Origin: Malacoraja senta
Taxonomy: Eukaryota
DNA: 64,000 bases
Direction: 5' to 3'
Assembly (NCBI GenBank): GCA_038087875.1
Contig: CM075995.1
Coordinates: 3,040,001-3,104,000 of the forward strand
Under the pieces are notes generated by a model, which did not search any database, was not told the DNA's origin, and worked only from the letters and a program-made list of their open reading frames with translations. The first letter of the stretch is position 1. The number at the start of each line of letters is the position of its first letter. Both the position numbers and the translations under genes were made by a program. Shown one piece after another: positions 8,416 to 64,000 of the stretch.

Positions 8416-9014
8416 TGAACTAAAATAGTCTACACTAAAATAGTTGACTTTGGAAGAGGAAGGTTGAGGATCCACAAACCTGTTTTCATCGGCAGAGTCA
8501 AAAACTTAAAATACCTGGGCGTGCATATCTCTGAAGATCTGTCCTGGACTCAGCACGTTGATGCAATCATAAAGAAAGCCCATCAACGCCTGTACTTCCT
8601 TAGAAGATTGAGGAGTTTTGGTTTGTCAACAACTACTCCCTTGGACTTCCACAGGTGTACAGTCGAGACCACATCGACCGATTTTCTTCTGGGTGCCCCG
8701 CTTTCCTCCCACATCTCAAAGACTCCTCCTTGGGATTTGTATTTTCCCCCTAGTATGTGAGGGGTGGGTGAGAAAGTGGGATAACATAGATGTAGTGTGA
8801 ATGGGTGAACACAGAATGCTGGAGTAACGGGCCAGGCAGCATCTCTGGAGAGAAGGAATGGGTGACGTTTCGGATGGCCAAAACTAAACTAAACTGAACT
8901 AAACTAAACTGAACATCTGCAGGTCCTTCTTAAACATAAACTAAACTTAACCTACTCAAAAAATCTCAAGGTAATCCAGCATAGTATTATCAAAGAGTAT
9001 TTCACACCATACTA

Positions 9015-9154
9015 TTTCTTCTTCTTGCGTACGGCGTGCACAGCCTAAAGTTGTAGGACAACTTGTTCTATTTGATCTTATTTGATTGTGCACGCCGGGT
9101 TAATGCATTCGTCGAAATAGGGCGGACCACGTGAAGGTTGCAATCTCCCACCCC
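9015..9154 (-). mobile_element. 140-bp non-autonomous retroposon with ribozyme-like head and (AAG)n tail
   Basis: TSD accatacta (9006-9014) / accgtacta (9155-9163); minus-strand 3' end caagaagaagaaa; internal 10-bp stem ggcgtgcaca/tgtgcacgcc. Confidence 0.8.
9102..9154 (-). ncRNA. Minimal HDV-like self-cleaving ribozyme fold
   Basis: GGGGTGG(P1) GAG ATTGCA(P2) ACC(P3) TTCACGT(L3) GGT(P3') CCGCCCT(P1', G1.U wobble) A TTTCGA C GAA TGCATT(P2'); no P4; P1.1 position is A rather than G in this copy. Confidence 0.75.
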
Positions 9155-9416
9155 ACCGTACTACTAGAGGAGAGCAAATAGAATGAAATATGTGGTTACG
9201 AAGAAGCAACAAAAAGATTTTTAGACGGTTTTAAACATGGGCCAAGCAGCTGACAAGGCTGCTGGCAGTGCGATGAAAGGTAGGGTTGTGCAGGAAACCA
9301 ACTGGGTTGCAGGTAATGTCAAGTATCTCACACATCCAGCATACGAATAGCTTGCCGATATTTGCGAGCTACACTGTGACATAATCGAGAGGGCGTACTA
9401 CTGCAGAACACAATTG

Positions 9417-33197: not shown

Positions 33198-36100
33198 TCA
33201 AGTTCAAGTGAGTTTATTGTCATGTGTCATCGGACAATGAAATTCTTGCTTTGCTTCAGCACAACAGAACATAGAAGGCATTGACTACAAAACAGATCAG
33301 TGTGTCCATATATCATTATATAAATATATACACACATGAATAAATAAACTGATAAAGTGCAAATAACACATAATGGGCTATTAATGTTCATAGTTTTGTC
33401 CGAGCCAAGTTTAATAGCCTGATGGCTGTGGGGAAGTAGATATTCCTGAACCTGTTCATTGCAGTCTTCAGGCTCCTGTACCTTCTACCTGAAGGTAGCA
33501 GGGAGATGAGTGTGTGGCCAGGATGGTGTGGGTCCTTGATGATACTGCCAGCCTTTTTGAGGCAGCGACTGCGATAGATCCCCTTGATGGAAGGGAGGTT
33601 AGAGCCGATGATGGACTGGACAGTGTTTACTACTCTTTGTAGTCTTTTCCTCTCCAGGGCGCTCAAGTTGCCGAACCAAGCCACGATGCAACCGGTCAGC
33701 ATGCTCTCTACTGTGCACGTGTAGAAGTTAGAGAGAGTCCTCCTTGACAAACCGACTCTCCGTAATCTTCTCAGGAAGTAGAGGCGCTGATGTGCTTTCT
33801 TAATAGTAGCATCAGTGTTCTCGGACCAGGAAAGATCTTCAGAGATGTGCACGCCCAGGAATTTAAAGCTCTTGACCCTTTCAACCATCGACCCATTGAT
33901 ATAAACGGGACTGTGGGTCCCCAACCTACTCCTTCCAAAGTCCACAATCAGTTCCTTGGTTTTGCTGGTGTTGAGGGCCAGGTTATTGTGCTGGCACCAT
34001 ATGGACAGTTGCTCGATCTCTCTTCTGTATTCTGACTTATCCCCATCAGTGATACGACCCACAACAGTGGTGTCGTCAGCGAACTTGATGATCGAGTTCG
34101 CACTATGGCTGGCTATGCAGTCATGATTATAGAGTGAGTACAGCAGGGGACTGAGCACGCAGCCTTGAGGTGCTCCCGTGCTGATTGTTATCGAGGCTGA
34201 CACATTTCCACCAATACGAACAGACTGTGGTCTGAGAATGAGGAAGCCGAGGATCCAATTGCAGAGGGATGCGCAGAGACCCAGTTCTGCGAGTTTGGTA
34301 ACCAGCTTGGAGGGGATGATTGTATTAAATGCCGAGCTGTAATCGATGAATAACAGCCTGGCATATGAGTTTTTGTTGTCCAAGTGGTCCAGAGCGGAGT
34401 GGAGGGCCAGCGAGATCGCATCCACCATTGATCTGTTGTGGCGGTAAGCGAACTGCAGTGGGTCCAGGTTCTTGTCGAGGTAGGAGTTGATGTGCACCAT
34501 AATCAACCTCTCAAAGCACTTCATCACCACAGGCGTTAGTGCCACAGGTCGATAGTCATTGAGGCACGTCACCTTACTCTTCTTGGGCACTGGTATAATT
34601 GCTGCCCTTTTGAAGCAGGTGGGAACCTCAGACCTCAGAAGTGAGAGGTTGAAAATGTCCGTAAAACTCCAGCCAGTTGGTCGCACAGGTTTTTATAACG
34701 CGACCAGGTATACCATCAGGTCCAGGCGCTTTTCGAGGGTTCACTCCTCTGAAGGATTTCCTGACGTCGGCCTCTGTGACTGAGACTGAAATACCATCAC
34801 AGCGAATGGGAGCTCGGGAAGGCACATCGGTGTTCTCCCTATCAAAGCGTGCGTAAAACTCATTGAGCTCATCAGGGAGTGATGTTTCGCCGACATTCGA
34901 GCTGCCTCCCGATTTTACCTTGTAGGAGGTGATTGCATTCAGGCCCTGCCACAGCTGCCGAACATCTGTCTCTTCCTCCAGTTTGGAGCAGAAGTCCCTT
35001 TTGGCCTTTTTGATGGCCTTACCAAGGTCGCATCTGGACTTCTTGTAGACCACTGTATCATCAGACATGAATGACCGGTGTCTGGTCTTCAGAAGAGTGC
35101 GGATCTCAAAGTTCATCCAAGGTTTGGGAAATACTCGGAAGGTTTTTGTAGGGATGCAGTCCTCCACACATTTCTTAATGAAGTCTGTAACGACTGTGGC
35201 GTATTCGTTCAAGTCCGTTGCCGAGTCCTTGAACATTGCCCAGTCTACAGACTCCAAACAGTCCTGGAGTTGTTCCTCTGCCCCCCCCCCCACTCCCGAC
35301 CAGTTCTGCACTGTCCTCACCTCTGGGGGTGCGCTCTTTAATTGCTGCCTGTAGGCAGGAAGAAGCAGCACCGTGGTATGGTCAGATTTACCGAAGTGAG
35401 GGCGAGGGATAGAGCGGTAGGCATTCTTGATGGTGGTGCAGCAGTGGTAGAGGGTGTTTGGTCCTCTGGTGCAGCAGGAGACATGTTGGTGGAAGTTAGG
35501 GAGTGATTTCTTTAGGTTTGCCTTATTGAAGTCCCCAGCAATGGTGGTAAATGCCTCGGGGTAAGACGTCTGGTGTTTGTTGACCACAGCGTGCAGCTCC
35601 TCCAGTGCCAGACGGACGTCTGCCTGCGGTGGGATGTAGACCGCGGTCAGGATGATGAAGGTGAATTCCCTCGGAAAGTAGAAGGGACGACACTTCACCG
35701 CCAGATGTTCGAGGTGTGGAGAGCACGAGTTGGACAGGACTGCCACGTCTGAGCACCACGCAGAGTTGACCATGAGGCAGACGCCTCTTCCTCTCCCTTT
35801 CCCAGATGCCAGTGTACGGTCTATACGGTGGATGGAGAACCCTTCAGGCTGGACCGCTGAGTCTGGGGAGCTGAGGGTGAGCCATGTCTCGGTAAAACAG
35901 AACACAGAGCATTCCCTCAGCTCCCTTTGATAAAGCAGTCTTGCCCTTAAGTCCTCCACTTTATTTTCAAGGGACTGTACGTTGGCCAGTAGGATAGTAG
36001 GGAGAGGGGGCCGAAGTCCCCTGCGCTTCAGTCTGACCTGAAGTCCTGCCCGCCGGCCACGTTTCCGGACACAATGGAGGCTTCCCCTTTGTTTCCAGGC

Positions 36101-36522
36101 GCTGAGTCTACTGTACCTGCTGTTTCTGCGGACCTGCGCTGGAACAGGGATTCCTTTCAAGACGGCAGCTCCAGCTCCGTAACGAACGGGGGTACATTCA
36201 AAGTCGGCAGCTCCAGCTTCATTGTTCCTGGAGGATCCAGCTCGTCAGCTCTGGAGGTCATCCCGTGGTTTCAAGGTGCCGTACCTGGGTTCCTCAGTCG
36301 GGTCGGGTGTTTCACAGCCAGCATGGGAAAGTTTAAAGTCCGGGGCTCCCGCAGCTGCGGGAGATGGTGAAATTGCGAGAGCCTTGAGGTGCTCAAGCAG
36401 CTTGTCTGAAATGGCACCGTTTTCTGCCGTTTTCCTGATCCAGGTGAGTTGATTGAAGTTGTATCTAAGTCTTTTAGGGTCTGGTCCTCCACAAACGTCG
36501 CCGCAGGCAGGCGCCATCTTGA
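33198..36522 (-). mobile_element. Near full-length Rex1/Babar non-LTR retrotransposon
   Basis: 5' aagatggcg start; AP endonuclease (LANVQSL, FTETWL, AGDFN, SDH) then RT ([24 protein letters not shown]); 3'UTR ending gacaataaactcacttgaacttgag. Confidence 0.95.
33388..36160 (-). pseudogene. Rex1/Babar endonuclease-reverse transcriptase ORF, frameshifted near 34680
   Basis: Overlapping ORFs 34628-36160 (APE domain) and 33388-34686 (RT domain). Confidence 0.9.
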
Positions 36523-38971: not shown

Positions 38972-39592
38972 TATAACCATATAACCATATAACCATATAA
39001 CAATTACAGCATGGAAACAGGCCATCTCGACCCTTCAAGTCCATGCCGAACACTATTTCTCCCCTAGTCCCATATACCCATCCAATCTATTTTTAAATTA
39101 TAAAATCGAACCTGCCTCCACCACTTCCACTGGAGGCTCATTCCACACAGCTACCACTCTCTGAGTAAAGAAGTTCCCCCTAATGTTACCCCTAAACTTC
39201 TGTCCCTTAATTCTCAAGTCATGTCCTCTTGTTTGAATCTTCCCTACTCTCAGTGGGAAAAGCTTATCCACGTCAACTCTGTCTATCCCTCTCATCATTT
39301 TAAAGACCTCTATCAAGTCCCCCCTTAACCTTCTGCGCTCCAAAGAATAAAGACCTAACTTGTTCAGCCTTTCTCTGTAACTTAGTTGCTGAAACCCAGG
39401 CAACATTCTAGTAAATCTCCTCTGTACTCTCTCTATTTTGTTGACATCCTTCCTATAATTAGGCGACCAAAATTGTACTCCATACTCCAGAATTGGCCTC
39501 ACCAATGCCATGTACAATTTTAACATTACATCCCAACTTCTATATTCAATGCTCTGATTTATAAAGGCCAGCACACCAAAAGCTTTCTTTAT
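38972..39592 (-). mobile_element. 5'-truncated CR1, same subfamily as 40421-44677
   Basis: ORF 39098-39595 KKAFGVLAFINQSIEYRSWD..; (GGTTATAT)n tail. Confidence 0.95.
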
Positions 39593-39594
39593 CA

Positions 39595-39644
39595 TGCGCA
39601 GCGCAGACAGGAAGTGGTCAAGATGAGACTTTTAGTTATATAGA
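39595..39644 (-). mobile_element. Helitron 5'-end stub
   Basis: Minus strand tctatataactaaaagtctcatcttgaccacttcctgt matches the Helitron starts at 28063, 28732 and 31144. Confidence 0.8.
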
Positions 39645-39649
39645 TATAC

Positions 39650-39692
39650 AGATGCACATATACACAAACTCAAAAACAAATGATAGTAGTGC

Positions 39693-39756
<64 letters not shown>

Positions 39757-40265
39757 GTCTATTGTAGTTTAGAGCTTATTTGAGGTTGTAATGTTTAATA
39801 GCCTGAAGGCTGCAGGGAAGAAGCTGTTCCTGAACCTGGACGTTACAGTCTTCAGGCTCCTGTGCCTTTTTCCCGATGGGAGTGGTGAAATGTGTGTGTG
39901 GCCAGGATGGTGTGGGTCTCTGATGATGTTGGCTGCCTTTTTGAGGCAACGACTCCGATAAATCCCTTCGATGATGCGGAGGTCAGAGCCGGTGATGGAC
40001 TGGGCAGTGTTCACAACTTTTTCCAGTCCTGGACATACAAGTTGCCGAACCAGGCCATGATATGCTCTCTATGGTACTCCTGTAGAATGTTCAAGAGAAT
40101 CCTCTCTGACATACCGAATCTCCGTAATCTTCTCAGGAAGTAGAGGCGTTGATGTGCTTTATTTTTAATTGCATCAGTGTGCTGGGTCCAGGAAAGATCT
40201 TTGGAAATATGCACGCCCAGGAATTTGAAGTTTTTGACTCTCTCCACCCCGTTGATATAAACAGG
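39650..40265 (-). mobile_element. Rex1/Babar 3' fragment containing (TAA)n
   Basis: [30 protein letters not shown]. Confidence 0.9.
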
Positions 40266-40522
40266 ACAAAAACAGGATCATTACATAAAGCTACAGTTTA
40301 GTTTAGTTCAGATTATTGTCACGTGTAGCAAGGTACAGTGAAAAGCTTTTGTTGCCTGCTATCCAGTCTGCGGAAAGACAATGCATGATTACAATCAAGC
40401 CATGTATCATAGACACATGATATAACCATATAACCATTATAGCACGGAAACAGGCCATCTCGGCCCTTCAAGTCCATGCCGAACACTTTTTATATTTTTC
40501 CCTTCTTTCTTCTTACTTCCCC

Positions 40523-43330
40523 CTAGTCCCATCTACCTGCACTCAGACCATAACCCTCCATTCCTTTCCCATCCATATACCCATCCAATCTATTTTTAAA
40601 GGATAAAATCGAACCTGCCTCCACCACTTCCACTGGAAGCTCATTCCACACAGCTACCACTCTCTGAGTAAAGAAGTTCCCCCTAATGTTACCCCTAAAC
40701 TTCTGTCCCTTAATTCTCAAGTCATGTCCCCTTGTTTGAATCTTCCCTACTCTCAATGGGAAAAGCTTATCCACGTCAACTCTGTCTAACCCGCTCATCA
40801 TTTTAAAGACCTCTATCAAGTCCCCCCTTAACCTTCTGCGCTTCAAAGAATAAAGACCTAACTTGTTCAGCCTTTCTCTGTAACTTAGTTGCTGAAACCC
40901 AGGCAACATTCTAGTAAATCTCCTCTGTACTCTCTCTATTTTGTTGACATCCTTCCTATAATTAGGCGGCCAAAATTGTACTCCATACTCCAGAATTGGC
41001 CTCACCAATGCCTTGTACAATTTTAACATTACATCCCAACTTCTATATTCAATGCTCTGATTTATAAAGGCCAGCACACCAAAAGCTTTCTTTACCACCC
41101 TATCTACATGAGATTCCACCTTCAGGGAACTATGCACAGTTATTCCTAGATCCCTCTGTTCAACTGCATTCCTCAATTCGCTACCATTTACCATGTACGT
41201 CCTATTTTGATTTGTCCTGCCAAGATGTAGCACCTCACATTTATCAGCATTAAACTCCATCTGCCATCTTTCAGCCCACTCTTCCAAATGGCCTAAATCT
41301 CTCTGTAGACTTTGAAAATCTACTTCATTATCCACAACACCACCTATCTTAGTATCATCTGCATACTTACTAATCCAATTTTCCACACCATCATCCAGAT
41401 CATTGATGTACATGACAAACAACAGTGGACCCAACACAGACCCCTGAGGCACCCCACTAGTCACCGGCCTCCAACCTGACAAACAGCCATCCACCATTAC
41501 TCTCTGGCATCTCCCATTCAGCCACTGTTGAATCCATCTTGCTACTCCACCATTAATACCCAACAATTTAATCTTCTTAACCAACCTTCCATGAAGAACC
41601 TTGTCAAAGGCCTTACTGAAGTCCATATAGACAACATCTACTGCTTTACCCTCATCAATTTCCCTAGTAACCTCTTCGAAAAATTCAAGAAGATTTGTCA
41701 AACATGACCTTCCAGGCACAAATCCATGTTGACTGTTCTTAATCAGACCCTGTTTATCCAGATGCTTATATATATTATCCCTAAGTATCCTTTCCATTAA
41801 TTTGCCCACCACTGACATCAAACTAACAGGTCTATAATTGCTAGGTTTACTCTTAGAACTCTTTTTAAACAATGGAACAACATGCGCAGTACGCCAATCC
41901 TCCGGCACTATTCCCATTTCTAATGACATTTGAAATATTTCTGTCATAGCCCCTGCTATTTCTACACAAACTTCCCTCAATGTCCTAGGGAATATCCTGT
42001 CAGGACCTGGAGACTTATCCATTTTCATATTTTTCAAAAGTGTCCACACTTCCTCTTCTTTGAATCTCATAGTTTCCATTGCTACTCTGCTCATTTCCCT
42101 TACCTCACATAATTAAATATCCTTCTCCTTGGTGAATACCAAAGAAAAGAAATTGTTCAATATCTCCCCCATCTCTTTTGGCTCTGCAGATAGCAGTCCA
42201 CCCTGACTCTCTAATGGACCAATTTTATTCCTTGTTATCCTTTTGCTATTAATATAGCTGTAGAAACCCTTTGGGTTTACTTTCACCTTACATGCCAAAG
42301 CAACCTCATATCTTCTTTTAGCTTTTCTAATTTCTTTCTTAAGATTCTTTTTACATTCTTTATACTCCTGCAGCACCTCATTTACTCCATGCTGCCTATA
42401 ATTATTGTAGATCTCTCTCTTTTTCCGAACCGTGTCCAATTTCCCGTGAAAACCATGGCTCTTTCCAATTTTTACTATTTCCTTTCAACCGAACAGGGAC
42501 ATAAAGATTCTGTACTCTTAAAATTTCACCTTTAAATGTCCTCCATTTCTCTTCTACATCCTTCCCATAAAACAACATGTCCCAATTCACTCCTTTTAAA
42601 TCCTTTCGCATCTCCTCAAAGTTAGCCAGTCAAAAATCTCAACCTTAGGTCGAGTTCTGACCCTCTCCATAATTATATTGAAACTAATGGTATTGTGATC
42701 AATGGACCCAAAGTGCTCCCCAACGCATACCTCAGCCACCTGCCCTGTCTCATTTCCTAACAGGAGGTCCAGCACTGCCCCTTCTCTTGTAGGTACCTCT
42801 ATGTATTGCTGCAAAAAACTATCCTGCCCACATTTTACAAACTCCAAACCATCCAGCCCTTTTACAGAATGTGTTTCCCAGTCTATGTGTGGAAAATTGA
42901 AATCTCCCACAATCACTACCTTGTGCTTACTACTAATATCTGCTATCTCCTTACATATTTGCTCTTCCAATTCTCGCTCTCCATTAGGCGGTCTATAATA
43001 CAACCTATTAGTGTTGCTACCCCTTTCCCATTTCTCAGTTCCACCCAAATAGCCTCCCTAGACGAGCCCTCTAATCTATCCTGCCAAAGCACTGCTGTAA
43101 TATCTTCCTTGACAAGCAATGCAACACCCCCACCTCTTGCCCCTCCAATTCTATCACCCCTGAAGCAACGAAATCCTGGAATATTTAGTTTCCACTCACA
43201 GCCCTCCTGCAACCATGTTTCACTGATCGCCACAACATCATACTTCCAGGTGTCAATCCTGGCTCTAAGCTCATCCACCTCTCTTACAGTGCTCCTAGCA
43301 TTTAAATATACACATTTAAGAAACCCACCA
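40523..43330 (-). pseudogene. CR1 ORF2 (APE endonuclease + RT); frameshifts and a stop in the N-terminal half, 523-aa RT part open
   Basis: YLNARS, ISETWL, VGDFNFP, DHN; RT: QHGF, DFSKAFDKV, GVPQGSVLGP, KYADD. Confidence 0.95.
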
Positions 43331-43463
43331 CCACTTATTCTCTGTTTATTATCTTTTTCTTCTTTCTCCCCTACATTTTGGGTCCGAGTGCTTCCCTTCT
43401 CTGCCTCCTGCCTCACACCCTGACTACTAGCTTTCCCTATTCGAGTCCCTCCCCTCAACCGTT

Positions 43464-44391
43464 CTAGTTTAAAGTCTCCCCAGTTGCCTTTGCAAATCTC
43501 CCCGCCAGGATATTGGTCCCCCTCGGGTTCAAGTGCAACCCGTCCTTTTTGTACAGGTCACACCTTCCCCAAAAGAGGTCCCAATGATCCAGAAACTGGA
43601 ATCCCTGCCCACTGCACCAGTCCCTCAGCCACGCATTTATCCTCCACCTCATTCCATTCCTACTCTCACTGTCTCGTGGCACAGGCAGTAATCCTGAGAT
43701 TGTTATTTTTTTGGTCCTTCTCCTTAACTCTCCTCCCATCTCCCTAAATTCTCCTTTCAGGACCTCTTCTCTCTTTCTACCTATGTCATTGGTACCTATA
43801 TGTACCATGACCTCAGGCTCCTCTCCCTCCGATTTCAGGATATCTTGGACGCGTTCAGACACCTCCCTGACCCTGGCACCAGGGAGGCAAACTACCATCC
43901 GGGTCTCCTGACTGCATCCACAGAATCGCCTATCTGACCCCCTAACCATAGAGTCCCCTATTACTATTGCCCTCCTCTTCTTTTCCCTACCCTTCTGAGC
44001 AACAGGGCCGGTCTCTGTGCCGGAGGCCCGGCCGCTGTCGCTACCCGCAGGAAGGCTGTCCCCCCCAACAGTACTCAAACATGAGTACTTATTTTCAAGG
44101 TGTACAGCCACCGGGGGTACTCACTAGTCCTTGCCTCTGCCCCTTGCCCTTCCTAACCGTGACCCACTTGTCCGCCTCCCGTGGTCTTGGAGTGACCACC
44201 TCCCTATAACTCCTTTCTATAACCTCCTCACTCTCCCTGATCAGACAGAGGTCATCGAGCTGTTGCTCCAGGTTCCTAACACGGTCCCTTAGGAGCCCCA
44301 TCTGGACACAGATGTGGACGTCTGGAGGGGTATCAGACTCCATGACCTCCCACATCTGACATCCAGAACAGTAAACTGCCCTGGCCCTCAT
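43464..44391 (-). pseudogene. CR1 ORF1: Cys-rich N-terminus, coiled coil and SGNH/GDSL esterase; frameshift near 44100
   Basis: CSGCQMWE; VIGDSMVR, VHIGTND, DGLHLN esterase blocks. Confidence 0.9.
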
Positions 44392-50827: not shown

Positions 50828-53255
50828 TTTTACTTCGGAGTCACGTGAGTGACTACGTGAAGAAGCCCGCCAGCCCGCATGCGTGTCATTACGTCTAACG
50901 CATGGCGCACGACTGGCTGGCAGGCGCGTCGCTCCTCCAGCGGTAAGTTTCAAAATCCTGCAGGTAAGTTTTCTAACTTAATTTCAGGTTGTGCTTTTTC
51001 CTTGCAGGAAGCTCTTTTACAGAGTTCCTGCTGGATGACATTCCGGGGTCGAAACCCGGCTACGGAGACCGCGGAGAATCCCGGCTCCGTGGGGAAACCC
51101 GGCTCGGGGAAACCCGGCTAGGGAGATCACGGGCAATCCCGGCTCCGCGGGGAAACCTGGCTCGGGGAAACCCGGCTACGGAGACCGCGGGGAATCCAGG
51201 CTCCGCGGGGAGGCCCGGCTCGGGGAAACCCGGCTACGGAGACCGCGGGAGTGCGGGCAGCCTGCGGCGGTCGGATTCGCTACCCAAGTCGCTGACAGGG
51301 TGGTCAGCGACTCCAGACTCCGGCAGCCCCGAGAGGCTGTGCAGCCGAACGGAGTCCGAGAGGCCTGGACTGGGACAAGTCAGGCCAGGAGGGTTCCCCT
51401 CCATGGGTACGTCCTCGGACGTTTACCCAGGTGGAGCATGGATGCGTCAGCAGGGCGTTCATCCCACTGAGGTGATGCTCCACCCTGATATGGTCTGTGG
51501 AATGGGGCCATTTCAGCGCAAGTCTCGTCGGGGACCTGCAACAGCACCTGTTTCAGGGCTGCTTACAAATCTCCCTCTCTGTGGAAGGGAGTGCGAGGGG
51601 TCAGTGTGTGACTGACTCCAAACTGGGAAGTATGTCCGTGAAACATACTGGAGTACATGCGTGAGGTTCAAGAATTGTCTGTCATGGCATCAAGGGTTGC
51701 TATATCCTCGCAAACGGAGGTGCCGCTGCAAGAAGAGTTGGTTTCCAGCCTATGGCAGAAAACCCGGGGGGGGGCAGGGTTTCCCCTCACATTACAAGCT
51801 TGGTAAGCATCAGTGACCTCACGTCACGTCATTACAGGAACATACACCTGTAAATTGTGCATTCCTGAAGGTGCCGGCAGTGAACAGCGCTATCTGTGGA
51901 GACTATGCATGGCGAGGCCAGCAATTTCCAGCCGCCGAATCTTCTCCTTGGAGAAGACCTAGCCAAACAGGTAAAAAACCTGGATGAGGAAGCAAAGCTG
52001 TCGGACTAATCAAGGTACCAGCGACGAGCAAAGCTTCACCGTTTTGGTGACAAACACCCCTACGCCTCCATCGGCAGTAAGCGGTTCACTGAAGCTGGTG
52101 GCAGCTTGAAAGCTGATTCTCTGGGCAGAGGTCTTCAGGCCTAGGCCCAAGCCGGCCCTCATGGAAAATGTGCAATCCACGCACCCCAGCAGTCCTACCC
52201 TCCAAATCAAGGACGGGAATAGAACCCACATCAGGGGCCTTTGGGCTTACCGTAAGACCACCGGTAACCATGCAGGTACGTGGGTCTGGTTCTTTCCGAC
52301 ACATTGGTTGTGTGGATCAGTTACAAGTTGGTGAGATTACACTTGTTTTGAATGAAAGGCATTGGATAACATCAGATTCGTTTATACTGCACAGTATACA
52401 ATGTTTCCAAATTGAATTCAATTCATTGCTACCCACACAGCATACGCCAAACCGGACATTGTCCATTCACAACAGGAAGGTTTGGATGTACAAGCTGAAA
52501 ATCAAAAGTTATATACAAAAGGGGTAATTGAGAAGTCGAGTCTTGAACCAATTTGTTTATAATATATTTTGACTCGACTTAACTCGTTTTGTGCAGTATA
52601 GACATTTCAAAATGGGAAACTTTGTTACTGCCAAACGACTGGTTTCCATAGGGTGTTATATGGCATGCATCGATCTCAAAGATGCACACTATCTCGGTAC
52701 CCTTTCGCTGGGATCACCTGAGATATTTGAAATTTAGCTGGATGGGGCAACTGTGGCAGTTTAAAGCATTGCCTTTTGTGTACCTTCGATTTTCCAGCAT
52801 CTGCAGTTCCTTCTTTAACACTAAAGCATTGCCTAATGGGTTAACTTCAGCCCAGATTATTTACCAAATTATTGAAGCCAGTACTTGGGCTACTTCGAGC
52901 TCAAAATCATATTGTTATGGCATATTTGGATGATATCCTAATCATAAGGAAAACCCTGGAGTTGGCTAAATTAGCTGTTTCAGCCACTAAACACATGTTT
53001 GAGAGATTGTGGTTCTCATCCATCCAGTTAAATCAAAGTTGATACCATCCAGAATTATTGAGTATTTGGGATTTACCATTAACTCTATTTTACATGTCTG
53101 TGACTCTGCCTTGGGGCAAGAGATTAGAATTAATAGAAGCCTGTAACAATCTCGTTGTTATGGAGCAACCTTCTATTCGACAATTAACCAGAGTAATTGG
53201 CAAATTAGTGGCTGCTTTCCAGCTGCACAGCTTGGGTCTTTGCATTATCAGAATG
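50828..53255 (+). mobile_element. Decayed DIRS-like (tyrosine-recombinase) retrotransposon, 5' part; interrupts a SINE
   Basis: Starts ttttacttcggagtcacgtgagtgactacgtgaag; gag-like PVNCAFLKVPAVN; RT remnants IDLKDA, WQFKALP.NGLTSA, FTKLLKPV..MAYLDDILI (YLDD 52923-52934), IEYLGF; the YR domain is not seen in the window. Confidence 0.8.
52775..52821 (+). mobile_element. 47-bp insertion of the Penelope-module 3' end into the DIRS RT
   Basis: 13-bp TSD taaagcattgcct (52762-52774, 52822-52834); insert matches ~4799-4842. Confidence 0.9.
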
Positions 53256-53259
53256 AGCA

Positions 53260-54239
53260 AAGGAGCAAGCAAGCAGTTAAATTACAATCTGATTAGTACA
53301 ATCCGTATTTGGAAACAAATAAAACAAAATTTAAAATTAAGAAACTTATCACTTTTATTACCTATAGTCAATAACCCTTCGTTTAGTCCTTCTATTATAG
53401 ATAAAGCTTATACACAATGGGATAGACTAGGAATTAAAACGCTTGGTGACTTGTATGAAACTGGAAAATTACTTTCATTTCAACAATTACAAATAAAATA
53501 TAAACTCGGAAATAATCAATATTTTAAATACTTTCAAATATGCGACTATTTGAAAAAATATACAAAAGATCATCATAATAACCCAGCAGATGTACTGGAC
53601 GAGGCAATGCAGATAAAAGCGGAATCAGCAAACTTAATATCATATTTGTACAATATTATCTTAAATGCACAAATACCATCTACGGAGGGTATCAGAAGAG
53701 ACTGGGAACAAGAGTTAGCTATTAAAATTTCAAAGGAAAGTTGGAATGAATACTTATTAAAAGTGCATAAATGCTCGATTAATGTAAGACACACTTTAAT
53801 ACAATTTAAAATTTTACATAGATTATATTATTCGAAAACTAAAATTCATAAAATTTTCCCAAACGTATCATCTATTTGTGATAAATGTCAATCCCAAGAA
53901 GCAACTATAGCGCACTCATTTGTCTTCTGTACAAAAATTCAAAAATTTTGGAATTAAATTTTTGAAATCTTTACAAAGTTATTTAAAACAAGACTGATAC
54001 CCAAAGCAGAATGGATTATCTTCGGAATAACGGAAGATGATCCAGAACTAAATGTGTTTCAAAAGAAATTAATGGATTATGGGTTAATAACTGGAAAAAA
54101 GCTAATTCTAAAATTTTGGAAGAAGGCTCCAATACCAACTATAAATATGTGGATTTCAAATATGTTTGAAACATTACACCTTGAAGAGATAAGACTCCTC
54201 CTAGCAGGTAAACCAGATCACTTCCACCTGACGTGGTCT
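53260..54239 (+). mobile_element. L1-clade LINE ORF2 C-terminal fragment, running into the gap
   Basis: WDRLGIKTLGDLY..FKYFQI..QFKILHRLYYS..CDKCQSQEATIAHSFVFC (CCHC zinc knuckle); abrupt shift to AT-rich sequence. Confidence 0.85.
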
Positions 54240-54439
54240 NNNNNNNNNNNNNNNNNNNNNNNNNNNNNNNNNNNNNNNNNNNNNNNNNNNNNNNNNNNNN
54301 NNNNNNNNNNNNNNNNNNNNNNNNNNNNNNNNNNNNNNNNNNNNNNNNNNNNNNNNNNNNNNNNNNNNNNNNNNNNNNNNNNNNNNNNNNNNNNNNNNNN
54401 NNNNNNNNNNNNNNNNNNNNNNNNNNNNNNNNNNNNNNN
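54240..54439. other. Assembly gap (200 N)
   Basis: Run of N. Confidence 1.
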
Positions 54440-57400
54440 GGAGTCCAGAGCAGCAAAACATATATGAGAACTTTGCTTAGAGTGTGAAGCATCGAAATAG
54501 GATTCTTCAAGCCCCTTCTCAATTTCAAGTGAGTTTATTGTCATGTGTCATAGGACAATTTAAATTCTTGCTTTGCTTCAGCAAACAGAACATAGAAGGC
54601 ATTGACTACAAAACAGATCAGTGTGTCCATATATCATTATATAAATATATACACACATGAATAAATAAACTGATCAAGTGCAAATAACACATAATGGGCT
54701 ATTAATGTTCATAGTTAGTCCAAGCCAAGTTAATAGCCTGATGGCTGTGGGGAAGTAGCTATTCCTGAACCTGGTCGTTGCAGTCTTCAGGCTCCTGTAC
54801 CTTCTACCTGAAGGTAGCAGGGAGATGAGTGTGTGGCCAGATGGTGTGGGTCCTTGATGATACTGCCAGCCTTTTTGAGGCAGCGACTGCAATAGATCCC
54901 CTCGATGGAAGGGAGGTCAGAGCCGATGATGGACTGGGCAGTGTTTACTACTCTTTGTAGACTTTTCCTCTCCAGGCGCTCAAGATGCCGAACCAAGCCA
55001 CGATGCAACCGGGTCAGCATGCTCTCTACTGTGCACCTGTAGAAGTTAGAGAGAGTCCTCCTGGACAAACCGACTCTCCGTAATCTTCTCAGGAAGTAGA
55101 GGCGCTGATGTGCTTTCTTAATAGTAGCATCACGTGTTCTCGGACCAGGAAAGATCTTCAGAGATGTGCACGCCCAGGAAATATTAAAAGCTCTTGACCC
55201 TTTCAACCATCGACCCATTGATATAAACGGGACGGTGGGTCCTCAACCTACTCCTTCCAAAGTCTGCAATCAGTTCCTTGGTTTTGCTGGTGTTGAGGGC
55301 CAGGTTATTGTGCTGGCACCATATGGACAGTTGCTCGATCTCTCTTCTGTACTCTGACTTATCCCCATCAGTGATACGTCCCACCAACAGTGGTGTCGTC
55401 AGCACTATGTCCGGCTACGCAGTCATGAGTATAGAGTGAGTACAGCAGGGGCTGAGCACGCAGCCTTGAGGTGCTCCCGTGCTGATTGTTATCAAGGCTG
55501 ACATATTTCCACCAATACGAACAGACTGTGGTCTGAGAGTGAGGAAGTCGAGGATCCAATTGCAGAGGGATGCGCAGAGACCCAGTTCTGCGAGTTTGGT
55601 AACCAGCTTGGGAGGGGATGATTGTATAAATGCCAAGCTGTAATCGATGAATAACAGCCTGGCATATGAGTTTTTGTTGTCCAAGTGTCCAGAACGGAGT
55701 GGAGGGCCAGCGAGATCGCATCCACCGTTGATATGTTGTGGCGGTAAGCGAACTGCAGTGGGTCCAGGTTTTTGTCGAGGTAGGTGTTGATTTGCACTAT
55801 GATCAACCTCTCAAGCACTTCATCACCACAGGCGTTAGTGCCACAGGTCGATAGTCATTGAGGCACGTCACCTTGCTCTTCTTGGGCACTGGTATGATTG
55901 ATGCCTTTTGAAGCAGGTTGGGAACCTCAGACCTCAGAAGTGAGAGGTTGAAATGTCCGTAAAAACTCCAGCCAGTTGGTCGAACAGGTTTTAGAACACG
56001 ACCAGGTATACCATCAGGTCCAGGCACTTTTCGAGGGTTCACTCCTCTGAAGGATTTCCTGACGTCGGCCTCTGTGACTGAGACTAAACATACCATCACA
56101 GCGAATGGGAGCTCAGGAAAGGCACATCGGTGTTCTCCCTATCAAAAGCGTGCGTAAAACTCATTGAGCTCATCAGGGAGTGATGTTTCGCCGACATTCA
56201 AGCTGCCTCCTGATTTTGCCTTGTAGGAGGCGATTGCATTCTGGCCCCGCCACAGCTGCCGAACATCTGTCTCATCCTCCAGTTTGGAGCAGGTCCCTTT
56301 TGGCCTTTTTGATGGCCTTACCAGGGTCATATCTGGACTTCTTGTAGACCACTGTATCATCAGACATGAATGCCCAGTGTCTGGTCTTCAGAAGAGTGCG
56401 GATATCAAAGTTCATCCAAGTTTCTGATTGGGAAACACTCGGAAGGTTTTTGTAGGGATGCAGTCCTCCACACATTCTTCTTAATGAAGTCTGTAAACGA
56501 CTGTGGCATATTCGTTCAAGTCTGTTGCCGAGTCCTTGAACATTGCCCAGTCTACAGACTCCAAACAGTCATGTAGTTGTTCCTCTGCCCCACCCCCCCC
56601 CCCACCCCCGACCAGCTCTGCACTGTCCTCACCTCTGGGGGTGCGCTCTTTAATTGCTGCCTGTAGGCAGGAAGAAGCAGCACCGTGGTATGGTCGGATT
56701 TACCGAAGTGAGGCGGAGGGATAGAGCGATAGGCATCCTTGATGGTGGTGTAGCAGTGATCGAGGTGTTTGGTCCTCTGGTGCAGCTAGGAGACATGTTG
56801 GTGGAAGTTAGGGAGTGATTTCTTTAGGTTTGCCTTATTGAAGTCCCCAGCAATGGTGGTAAATGCCTCGGGGTAAGACGTCTGGTGTTTGTTGACCACA
56901 GCGTGCAGCTCCTCCAGTGCCAGACGGACGTCTGCCTGGTGTGGGATGTAGGCCGCGGTCAGGATGACGAAGGTGAATTCCCTCGGAAAGTAGAAGGGAC
57001 GACACTTCACCGCCAGATGTTCGAGGTGTGGAGAGCACGAGTTGGACAGGACTGCCACGTCTGAGCACCACGCAGTTGACCATGGCAGGCAACGCCCCCT
57101 CCTCTCCCTTTCCCAGATGCCAGTGTACGGTCTATACGGTGGATGGGAGAAGCCCTTCAGGCTGGACCGCTGAGTCTGGGGAGCTGAGGGTGAGCCATGT
57201 CTCGGTAAAACAGAACACAGAGCATTCCCTCAGCTCCCTTTGATAAAGCAGCCTTAAGTCCTCCACTTTATTTTCAAGGGACTATACGTTGGCCAGTAGG
57301 ATAGTAGGGAGAGGGGGCCGAAGTCCCCCGCGCTTCAGTCTGACCTGAAGTCCTGCCCACCGGCACGTTTCCGGACACAATGGAGCTTCCCTTTGTTTCC

Positions 57401-61117: not shown

Positions 61118-64000
61118 GTCTATTGTAGTTTAGAGCTTATTTGAGGTTGTAATGTTTAATAGCCTGAAGGCTGCAGGGAAGAAGCTGTTCCTGAACCTGG
61201 ACGTTACAGTCTTCAGGTTCCTGTGCCTTCTTCCCGATGGGAGTGGTGAAATGTGTGTGTGGCCAGGATGGTGTAGGTCTCTGATGATGTTGCCTGCCTT
61301 TTTGAGGCAACGACTCCGATAAATCCCTTCGATGATGCGGAGGTCAGAGCCGGTGATGGACCGGGCAGTGTTCACAACTTTTTCCAGTCCTGGACATTCA
61401 AGTTGCCGAACCAGGCCATGATATGCTCTCTATGGTACTCCTGTAGAATGTTCAAGAGAATCCTCTCTGACATACCGAATCTCCGTAATCTTCTCAGGAA
61501 GTAGAGGCGTTGATGTGCTTTATTTTTAATTGCATCAGTGTGCTGGGTCCAGGAAAGATCTTTGGAAATATGCACGCCCAGGAATTTGAAGTTTTTGACT
61601 GTCTCCACCCCGTTGATATAAACAGGACAAAAACAGGATCATTACATAAAGCTACAGTTTAGTTTAGTTCAGATTATTGTCACGTGTAGCAAGGTACAGT
61701 GAAAAGCTTTTGTTGCCTGCTATCCAGTCTGCGGAAAGACAATGCATGATTACAATCAAGCCATGTATCATAGACACATGATATAACCATATAACCATTA
61801 TAGCACGGAAACAGGCCATCTCGGCCCTTCAAGTCCGTGCCGAACACTTTTTATATTTTTCCCTTCTTTCTTCTTACTTCCCCCTAGTCCCATCTACCTG
61901 CACTCAGACCATAACCCTCCATTCCTTTCCCATCCATATACCCATCCAATCTATTTTTAAAGGATAAAATCGAACCTGCCTCCACCACTTCCACTGGAAG
62001 CTCATTCCACACAGCTACCACTTTCTGAGTAAAGAAGTTCCCCCTAATGTTACCCCTAAACTTCTGTCCCTTAATTCTCAAGTCATGTCCCCTTGTTTGA
62101 ATCTTCCCTACTCTCAATGGGAAAAGCTTATCCACGTCAACTCTGTCTAACCTGCTCATCATTTTAAAGACCTCTATCAAGTCCCCCCTTAACCTTCTGC
62201 GCTCCAAAGAATAAAGACCTAACTTGTTCAACCTTTCTCTGTAACTTAGTTGCTGAAACCCAGGCAACATTCTAGTAAATCTCCTCTGTACACTCTCTAT
62301 TTTGTTGACATCCTTCCTATAATTAGGCGGCCAAAATTGTACTCCATACTCCAGAATTGGCCTCACCAATGCCTTGTACAATTTTAACATTACATCCCAA
62401 CTTCTATATTCAATGCTCTGATTTATAAAGGCCAGCACACCAAAAGCTTTCTTTACCACCCTATCTACATGAGATTCCACCTTCAGGGAACTATGCACAG
62501 TTATTCCTAGATCCCTCTGTTCAACTGCATTCCTCAATTCGCTACCATTTACCATGTACGTCCTATTTTGATTTGTCCTGCCAAGATGTAGCTCCTCACA
62601 TTTATCAGCATTTAACTCCATCTGCCATCTTTCAGCCCACTCTTCCAAATGGCCTAAATCTCTCTGTAGACTTTGAAAATCTACTTCATTATCGACAACA
62701 CCACCTATCTTAGTATCATCTGCATACTTACTAATCCAATTTTCCACACCATCATCCAGATCATTGATGTACATGACAAACAACAGTGGACCCAACACAG
62801 ACCCCTGAGGCACCCCACTAGTCACCGGCCTCCAACCTGACAAACAGCCATCCACCATTACTCTCTGGCATCTCCCATTCAGCCACTGTTGAATCCATCT
62901 TGCTACTCCACCATTAATACCCAACAATTTAATCTTCTTAACCAACCTTCCATGAGGAACCTTGTCAAAGGCCTTACTGAAGTCCATATAGACAACATCT
63001 ACTGCTTTACCCTCATCAATTTCCCTAGTAACCTCTTCGAAAAATTCAAGAAGATTAGTCAAACATGACCTTCCAGGCACAAATCCATGTTGACTGTTCT
63101 TAATCAGACCCTGTTTATCCAGATGCTTATATATATTATCCCTAAGTATCCTTTCCATTAATTTGCCCACCACTGACGTCAAACTAACAGGTCTATAATT
63201 GCTAGGTTTACTCTTAGAACTCTTTTTAAACAATGGAACTACATGCGCAGTACGCCAATCCTCCGGCACTATTCCCATTTCTAATGACATTTGAAATATT
63301 TCTGTCATAGCCCCTGCTATTTCTACAGTAACTTCCCTCAATGTCCTAGGGAATATCCTGTCAGGACCTGGAGACTTATCCATTTTCATATTTTTCAAAA
63401 GTGTCCACACTTCCTCTTCTTTGAATCTCATAGTTTCCATAGCTACTCTGCTCATTTCCCTTACCTCACATAATTAAATATCCTTCTCCTTGGTGAATAC
63501 CGAAGAAAAGAAATTGTTCAATATCTCCCCCATCTCTTTTGGCTCTGCAGATAGCTGTCCACCCTGACTCTCTAATGGACCAATTGTATTCCTTGTTATC
63601 CTTTTGCTATTAATATAGCTGTAGAAACCCTTTGGGTTTACTTTCACCTTACATGCCAAAGCAACCTCATATCTTCTTTTAGCTTTTCTAATTTCTTTCT
63701 TAAGATTCTTTTTACATTCTTTATACTCCTGCAGCACCTTATTTACTCCATGCTGCCTATAATTATTGTAGATCTCTCTCTTTTTCCGAACCGTGTCCAA
63801 TTTCCCGTGAAAACCATGGCTCTTTCCAATTTTTACTATTTCCTTTCAACCGAACAGGGACATAAAGATTCTGTACTCTTAAAATTTCACCTTTAAATGT
63901 CCTCCATTTCTCTTCTACATCCTTCCCATAAAACAACATGTCCCAATTCACTCCTTTTAAATCCTTTCGCATCTCCTCAAAGTTAGCCAGTCAAAAATCT
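54440..64000 (+). repeat. Second copy of 33120-42639 (Rex1/Babar, SINEs, MITE, short CR1, Helitron stub, CR1 ORF2)
   Basis: Colinear, high identity, same nested insertions and the same CR1 frameshifts; offset about 21.3 kb. Confidence 0.97.
61884..63455 (-). pseudogene. CR1 ORF2 RT part, duplicate copy
   Basis: 523-aa ORF nearly identical to 40523-42094. Confidence 0.95.

Follow-up and report, generated by a model that had tools for sequence, protein, structure and literature searches.

The 64,000-nt stretch of the Malacoraja senta genome analysed here (contig CM075995.1, positions 3,040,001 to 3,104,000; hereafter the window, in whose coordinates positions are given) contains, on its minus strand between 9154 and 9015, one copy of a dispersed 141-nt family. 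[quoted passage not shown] LINE-derived ends, target site duplications (TSDs), an exact start at G1 and a conserved fold are all observed in this family; cleavage at G1 is what we infer from them. The initial annotation, made from the letters of this one copy, had described a ribozyme-headed element resembling a short interspersed nuclear element (SINE) and had proposed that it borrows the reverse transcriptase (RT) of an RTE-clade LINE. Its sequence, helices and coordinates for 9154-9015 all agree with our re-reading, and so does the 9-bp TSD with one mismatch that touches G1 (9163-9155 and 9014-9006). The parts of the element, read on the minus strand, are the following, where P, L and J denote paired, loop and joining segments, UTR stands for untranslated region, and L121 and L117 are LINE copies described below.

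9155-9163 (-): left TSD, 9 bp, adjoining G1 (sequence; 68 of 77 family copies have TSDs, 7-16 bp long)
9102-9154 (-): HDV-like ribozyme fold without P4 (sequence, family copies, and covariation over Vingi-type heads)
9154 (-): G1 of the ribozyme
9154-9148/9125-9119 (-): P1
9145-9139/9107-9102 (-): P2
9138-9136/9128-9126 (-): P3
9135-9129 (-): L3
9118 (-): P1.1 position, A in the window copy and G in the family
9118-9112 (-): J1/4 linker, 7 nt
9111 (-): catalytic-position C
9111-9108 (-): J4/2
9079-9154 (-): piece from the first ~78 nt of the LINE 5' UTR (88% identity to L121:43-111; older copies 96-99%)
about 9097-9087 (-): 5' arm of the end stem, within the LINE 5' UTR part (fold and copy comparison)
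9062-9078 (-): spacer at the junction, which looks like a slipped repeat of the A-rich terminus of the piece from the 5' UTR (suggested by copies compared with L121)
9015-9061 (-): piece taken from the 3' end of the LINE (LINE copy L117 matches it at 96% over 46 nt; 18 LINE 3' ends)
9064-9058/9054-9048 (-): inner 7-bp hairpin; only younger short copies have it in full, and the LINE does not
9047-9045 (-): stop codon, after the last codons of the LINE ORF
about 9042-9032 (-): 3' arm of the end stem, inside the 18-nt 3' UTR
9026-9015 (-): (AAG)n tail
9006-9014 (-): right TSD, one mismatch relative to the left TSD

Taken alone, the window copy is statistically weak. No Rfam family reaches its gathering score anywhere in the 64 kb, the best match of this copy by E-value is HDV-F-prausnitzii (16.9 bits and E 1.4 against a gathering score of 44, over 9154-9101), and its minimum free energy z-score is -2.13. 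The element nevertheless stands far beyond chance because of the family data, namely pattern counts set against none in controls, the TSDs and the G found at the position of 9118. The defect in P2 that had been read as a single mismatch is real, but its description needs revision: the family P2 has 7 bp, and in the window copy the 3' strand of that helix has lost 1 nt and carries a substitution. Not all helices of the nested double pseudoknot that makes up the full HDV-like fold are kept here, and this copy is probably inactive as a ribozyme.

Family structure and insertion sites

A DNA search of the 1.94-Gb assembly gave 809 candidates, of which the 40 scored, besides the window copy, were all full length and 95-97% identical. 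Because such a search favours full-length copies, the two ends were counted separately with 30-nt patterns allowing up to 2 mismatches. The 5'-end pattern matched 8,695 times and the 3'-part pattern 8,458 times, with 0 matches for the reversed controls, which confirms the predicted multi-copy, non-autonomous retroposon; the two counts are nearly equal, in support of the reading given above. Ninety loci were fetched; after setting aside six that were the same place twice, four duplicates (the assembly has some duplicated segments) and three incomplete copies, 77 unique complete copies were analysed.

The ends of these copies are strikingly uniform. Among the first 30 exact 3'-pattern matches on one contig (C1), the element starts at nt 1 in 21, at nt 2 in seven, at nt 3 in one and at nt 20 in one; that is, 29 of 30 copies picked by their 3' part alone begin within 3 nt of G1, the pile-up that the initial annotation had predicted. 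Conserved sequence upstream of G1, which it had named as evidence to the contrary, was looked for, and none is common to the copies. Conversely, 28 of 30 copies picked by the 5' pattern reach the AAG tail, the other two being interrupted. TSDs of 7-16 bp flank 68 of the 77 unique copies against 2 of 200 flank-swapped controls, and T is the base preceding G1 in 42 of 77 (against a background of 28%), with the target serving as its template in most cases. We thus find many independent insertions with TSDs plus a LINE tail, as in a bipartite non-autonomous LINE. At least half of the sampled words of the element also occur in sequencing runs under eight organism labels, and in contigs from all four runs examined, under four labels, the loose ends lie at G1 ±1 with a flank agreement of 0.34-0.45, i.e. 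near random.

The suspected absence of an RNA polymerase (Pol) III head holds as well: a simple pattern scan found no A or B box, no Rfam RNA-gene model matched, and the head derives from a LINE. Judged by its sequence, the element is not a SINE in the strict sense of a tRNA, 7SL or 5S head with Pol III boxes. A variant short element with ~10 nt more of the LINE 5' UTR, corresponding to another deletion breakpoint, is found at L084 and L085, loci that are nearly identical and lie 2 kb from each other.

The partner LINE and the origin of the short element

What supplies the enzymes to an element without an ORF? A LINE that shares its end had been predicted, and it exists. A pattern that keeps the 3' end but excludes the upstream bases of the short element found 51 matches, and the 18 that were fetched proved to be 3' ends of LINEs. 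Their ORF finishes with a cysteine/histidine motif, and its stop precedes the tail by 18 nt. When 100 of 218 LINE-type 5' motifs were crossed with 150 C-terminal hits, one same-strand pair 3.1 kb apart emerged, locus L121. It starts with the same head from nt 9 onwards (the first 7-8 nt are missing, and the 3' end is also damaged), continues with a 5' UTR of ~106 nt, and then has an ATG and a frameshifted single ORF, the pieces of which match an apurinic/apyrimidinic-type endonuclease (APE; PF14529, 35 bits) and an RT (PF00078, 91 bits). RNase H (PF00075) was found neither in the four ORF pieces of L121 nor in 120 of its homologues among those listed, and the pieces have no DUF6451 match.

The homologues are mostly APE-plus-RT proteins of ~1,000 aa on contigs of 3.1-3.5 kb. 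The closest intact relative, P0001, has 1,019 aa, lies on an ENA contig of 3,344 bases and is 72% identical to the decayed L121 frame, the next ones being at ~45%. Vingi elements are described as compact, with a single ORF for an APE endonuclease and an RT but, unlike Ingi, no RNase H (PMC13708176, in part). We therefore regard the partner as a decayed 3.1-kb LINE of Vingi type, its clade being placed by domain features, by length and by likeness to Vingi-2_Gav, whose 5' end has the same L3 and fold; length and fold give indirect support. Relatives of the LINE protein were absent from viral contigs, a search of solved structures matched only the RTs of L1, R2 and group II introns, and a protein atlas search returned RT-associated clusters only.

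The short element maps to L121:43-114 plus the last 46 nt of L117; it joins LINE nt 1 to ~78 to the final ~46 nt through a short slipped repeat. The expectation that the LINE would share both the 3' hairpin and the tail was borne out for the last 46 nt and the tail, whereas the inner hairpin is absent from the LINE and arose in the short element. The ribozyme head was inherited from the LINE's own 5' end and not acquired by the short element, which is therefore an internally deleted LINE, a described kind.

A ribozyme fold without P4

In common copies of the family every helix is complete: a 7-bp P1 that opens with a G1 wobble or pair, P2, which is restored there as 7 bp, a 3-bp P3 with L3, and P1.1. 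The G predicted at the P1.1 position (9118) is present in 71 of 77 unique copies; the catalytic-position C, first in J4/2, is kept in 74 and A46 in 76. The common 54-nt head occurs unchanged 425 times in the genome. All helices and the catalytic-position C are retained in 11 of 29 copies picked by their 3' part, which, scaled to about 8,500, corresponds to ~3,000 copies predicted to be intact. Changes that define subfamilies are tolerated by the fold (P1 U.G to U-A, J1/2, and the second base of J4/2).

Covariation was assessed over eight heads from six families, chosen for folding: two of this family, four of other families of the genome and two from metagenomes. In this alignment 95.8% of cells pair and 12 of 18 pairs changed on both sides, including all 7 of P2, with covariation in P1, P2 and P3; 0-1 of 500 shuffles reach those values, and slid controls pair at 38-46%. 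All eight have the same catalytic C and the same P1.1 C-G pair, so that pairing and the catalytic-position C, not primary sequence, are conserved across families. Covariation shows the fold of the head to be that of a minimal (P4-less) HDV-like ribozyme, and catalysis is predicted from it. Among 77 metagenome loci of LINE relatives, a strict descriptor matched once in 322 kb (both strands), directly before the Vingi-type ORF of L136; 644 kb of shuffled sequence gave no match. Of the 17 loci with upstream room, three (L136, L186 and L196) have a good fold with P4, and five or six decayed copies of the L196 family have parts of it.

Proposed mechanism and alternatives

We propose that a read-through host or upstream transcript would be cut just 5' of G1 by the head, releasing an RNA with an exact, uncapped 5' end; nearly all copies would then start at G1 without a leader because of this cut. 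The Vingi endonuclease/RT would recognise the shared 3' end and (AAG)n tail of the RNA and insert it by target-primed reverse transcription; both the LINE machinery and this mode of insertion are suggested by the shared ends and the length of the TSDs.

Several points weigh against this account. The Vingi assignment was made from features and not from an RT tree that includes named proteins of the clade. In the assembly the longest open frame among 150 scored hits has 406 aa and no LINE ORF was seen to be intact; the partner may therefore be extinct in this genome. The positions of the ends come from assembled contigs alone. An RNA of 141 nt is rarely truncated anyway, and identical ends would result from a promoter with its start at G1. 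The head of the family stays below every Rfam gathering score, and an Rfam E-value scan of L136, L186, L169, L122 and L121 gave sub-threshold matches only; Rfam models do not score pseudoknots. The rows of the covariation alignment were chosen because they fold, which inflates its figures, although a position just before the ORF was not a selection criterion; left out were five decayed metagenome copies that the script fitted poorly (P1 3-6/7 or in the wrong register) and L186 (P1 6/7, P2 6/7). The remaining metagenome loci with upstream room, including the Vingi-like L122, L125 and L126, showed no fold in a relaxed scan; in L122, a stem near the ORF start resembled P2, but the full fold could not be completed by eye.

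Could the main or an additional role of the head be that of an internal Pol II promoter with its start at G1, cleavage being secondary, as for Pr77 of L1Tc and NARTc? The same 77 nt serve as promoter and ribozyme in the sister clade Ingi/L1Tc (PMC4035085 and PMC8256844, both in part), and copy ends do not distinguish a transcription start from a cut site. Against it stands that pairing and the catalytic-position C, rather than primary sequence, are what the families conserve. Capped templates are expected to leave an extra G at -1, and an untemplated G is found there in 0 of the 69 copies with an anchored TSD, which is a weak argument. We consider this alternative unlikely, while a dual role of promoter plus cleavage is fully compatible with the data.

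It is quite improbable, in our estimation, that the fold has been retained as a compact, cap-like or protein-binding 5' structure in which the loss of P4 left catalysis weak or dead. R2 ribozyme folds do protect 5' ends (PMC13708176, in part), some well-folded heads of trypanosome SIDERs did not cleave (PMC4035085, in part), and the sequence of the 7-nt linker would allow G37 to pair with the catalytic C, enclosing a UUCG loop. Yet P4-less ribozymes are an established active class (PMC10879173, in part), a second family of the genome (L206) shares the P4-less layout of 54 nt and the 7-nt linker, keeps the C and differs in its helices, and a purely structural role would still need a cause for the precise end at G1. 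Finally, the initial proposal of a SINE-like family borrowing an RTE-clade RT has a negligible chance of being correct and is refuted as far as origin goes: a family with an AAG tail and DUF6451, which we take to be a marker of RTE-type elements, is present in the genome, but a PF20049 search and the 12 DUF6451 loci revealed no shared 3' sequence beyond the AAG repeat, whereas the Vingi-type LINE shares both ends. The genome has at least three RTE-type families (L091-L102), with AAG or TAAG tails.

Relation to known elements

Bipartite, ORF-less non-autonomous LINEs are known, including derivatives of Vingi-1_EE, and Vingi is one of the four clades that produce them (PMC5786205, in part). The bipartite LINEs of Kojima 2018 resemble the present family in having only the 5' and 3' ends of a LINE and no RNA-gene head. 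Vingi is missing from the 2018 list of ribozyme-bearing clades in the available part of that paper (PMC5786205; cf. PMC4494074). The short internally deleted elements (SIDEs) of R2 and the R2/R1 hybrid SIDEs of Drosophila, which cleave themselves from a co-transcript in vitro (PMC3414825, in part), likewise combine a 5' HDV-like ribozyme with a LINE 3' end. R2 SIDEs are specific to ribosomal DNA and low in copy number, whereas the present 141-nt family is dispersed, has about 10^4 copies and depends on an APE-type LINE. Closer in clade, since Ingi is the sister of Vingi, are NARTc, RIME, NARTco and the SIDERs, short Ingi-clade LINE derivatives headed by an HDV-like ribozyme; unlike the family described here, they are protist elements with a ribozyme that includes a P4 and also serves as promoter (PMC4035085, in part). 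The terms Vingi and vertebrate are absent from that paper.

With minimal HDV-like and theta ribozymes the head shares the lack of P4, a catalytic C that comes first in J4/2 and a short J1/2. About 99% of the minimal forms are in tailed phages, many beside tRNAs, and their origin and function are called undetermined (PMC10879173, in part). In contrast to these mostly phage-borne ribozymes, here one heads a vertebrate retroposon, and the theta-ribozyme setting, with the cleavage site at the 3' end of a phage tRNA, is not that of our copies, the upstream flanks of which are mutually unrelated. In the papers searched, as far as their available parts go, we found neither a ribozyme in Vingi nor a P4-less ribozyme in a vertebrate retroposon; Repbase/Dfam, patents and key primary papers lie outside that scope, so that the former may be in print and the family may already have a name. 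A literature search for HDV-like ribozymes in vertebrate Ingi-type elements gave nothing, and the cartilaginous-fish papers searched do not mention Vingi.

Possible pairing of the RNA ends

A stem of 10-11 bp pairs the 5' UTR arm with the 3' UTR arm, two arms that in the LINE would lie 3 kb apart. In younger short copies an A.C mismatch of this stem is repaired and the stem itself is longer. A distant Vingi-type family (L169 and L158) has an exact 10-bp complement at the same two places but in a different sequence, and it is reached by 0 of 256 (L169) and 0 of 307 (L158) body windows. By energy, the arm pairing is best in L176 and weaker in L171, the four loci belonging to one family. For the LINE of this genome the picture is less distinct: its 8-bp arm match is reached by 4 of 288 body windows, and in energy its arm pairing does not stand out, with 35 of 287 and 40 of 288 body windows being equally stable. 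The suggestion is that the end stem probably holds the two RNA ends together. The distant family (L169, L171, L176, L158 and L196), besides its complementary UTR arms, carries a P4-bearing head.

A further observation concerns truncated LINE copies. The head is inverted in two of the 12 that have a visible 5' junction, and the cross of 5' motifs with C-terminal hits contained five further inverted-head pairs against one full-length copy. In L110, L112, L199, L200 and L201, the first 70-180 nt are inverted and joined to the last 250-550 nt; in the five examined, the inverted pieces reach back to about nt 3-10, never past G1. Inverted 5' joins of this sort resemble twin priming, and the constant use of the far 5' end would fit an RNA whose ends are held together.

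Relation to the CPEB3 ribozyme

In the gharial element Vingi-2_Gav, the 5' end forms, by eye, a complete HDV-like fold with P4 and agrees with the Rfam consensus of the mammalian CPEB3 ribozyme (RF00622) at 52 of 54 positions outside the P4 interior. Searching the Malacoraja genome with RF00622 gave 51 matches among 59 scored, 39 of them above the gathering score and spread over many contigs, compared with none in any of 14 control genomes. Six were fetched (L202-L207), and three represent the 5' end of another Vingi-type LINE, a second one; the beginning of its ORF matches a Vingi-type profile (probability 97, E 1e-10). In these three, L202, L203 and L204 (G000:C21:8958106, C1:217550485 and C2:157111914), the heads score 61-64 bits on the CPEB3 model and the APE start lies ~30 nt further; across the Vingi-type heads of this genome other than that of the 141-nt family, the scores are 44-64 bits. 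The head of L205 has a different P4. A decayed copy at L207:200-278 (-) is the closest to the CPEB3 consensus, P4 included, and is similar to the SINE2-1_AMi body. The second P4-less head, at L206:171-224 (-), measures 54 nt and has a 7-nt linker and helices of its own; its family may account for about 30 of the 51 matches, those with lengths of 59-65 nt.

As P1 and P2 vary freely among Vingi-type heads, a match this close points to a Vingi head as the ancestor of the CPEB3 ribozyme, and the direction from Vingi to CPEB3 is suggested by many mobile copies as opposed to one host locus. The human genome holds traces of Vingi (PMC5753468, in part). The CPEB3 ribozyme has the same topology and L3 as the head of the 141-nt family but is a single intronic locus with P4; the family head differs from it in the sequence of P1-P3 and was not reported by RF00622 in the E-value scan. 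A link between the CPEB3 ribozyme and Vingi was not found in the literature searched. The available part of PMC5786205 does not remark on the ribozyme likeness of Vingi-2_Gav, none of six terms on origin or transposons occurs in PMC8233481, no source element is named in the available parts of PMC10919898, PMC8256844 and a 2026 preprint, and domestication is suggested in general terms only (PMC7761336).

Implications

Taken further, these findings suggest a broader picture to which we would give an even chance: that the Vingi clade starts with an HDV-like ribozyme, that at least two families here shed P4, that the CPEB3 ribozyme is a domesticated Vingi head, nearly identical through descent and not through convergence, and that Vingi RNAs pair their 5' and 3' UTRs. 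Were this so, minimal ribozymes would gain a vertebrate home and a job, and UTR pairing would account for the offspring with internal deletions as well as for the truncated copies with an inverted head. The findings add a clade to the ribozyme-headed LINEs and show a P4-less ribozyme fold dispersed over about 10^4 sites of a vertebrate genome; intact copies that lie in introns in sense orientation could cleave pre-mRNAs of the host. Two questions become testable: where minimal HDV-like ribozymes come from and what they do, and how the CPEB3 ribozyme of mammals originated. Vingi proteins and UTRs are also used in gene writing, with ~25% truncated inserts (PMC13708176, in part); a natural 141-nt template would indicate the minimal cis elements for Vingi, and a self-cleaving head together with an end-to-end stem would bear on template design.

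Other elements in the window

No host exon was identified in the window. Long open frames lie at 33391-36244 (-), 39101-44120 (-), 53043-54464 (+) and 61887-63473 (-), and these four presumably are RT or endonuclease pieces of other retroelements. Two window frames of 529 aa share their first 90 residues bar one.
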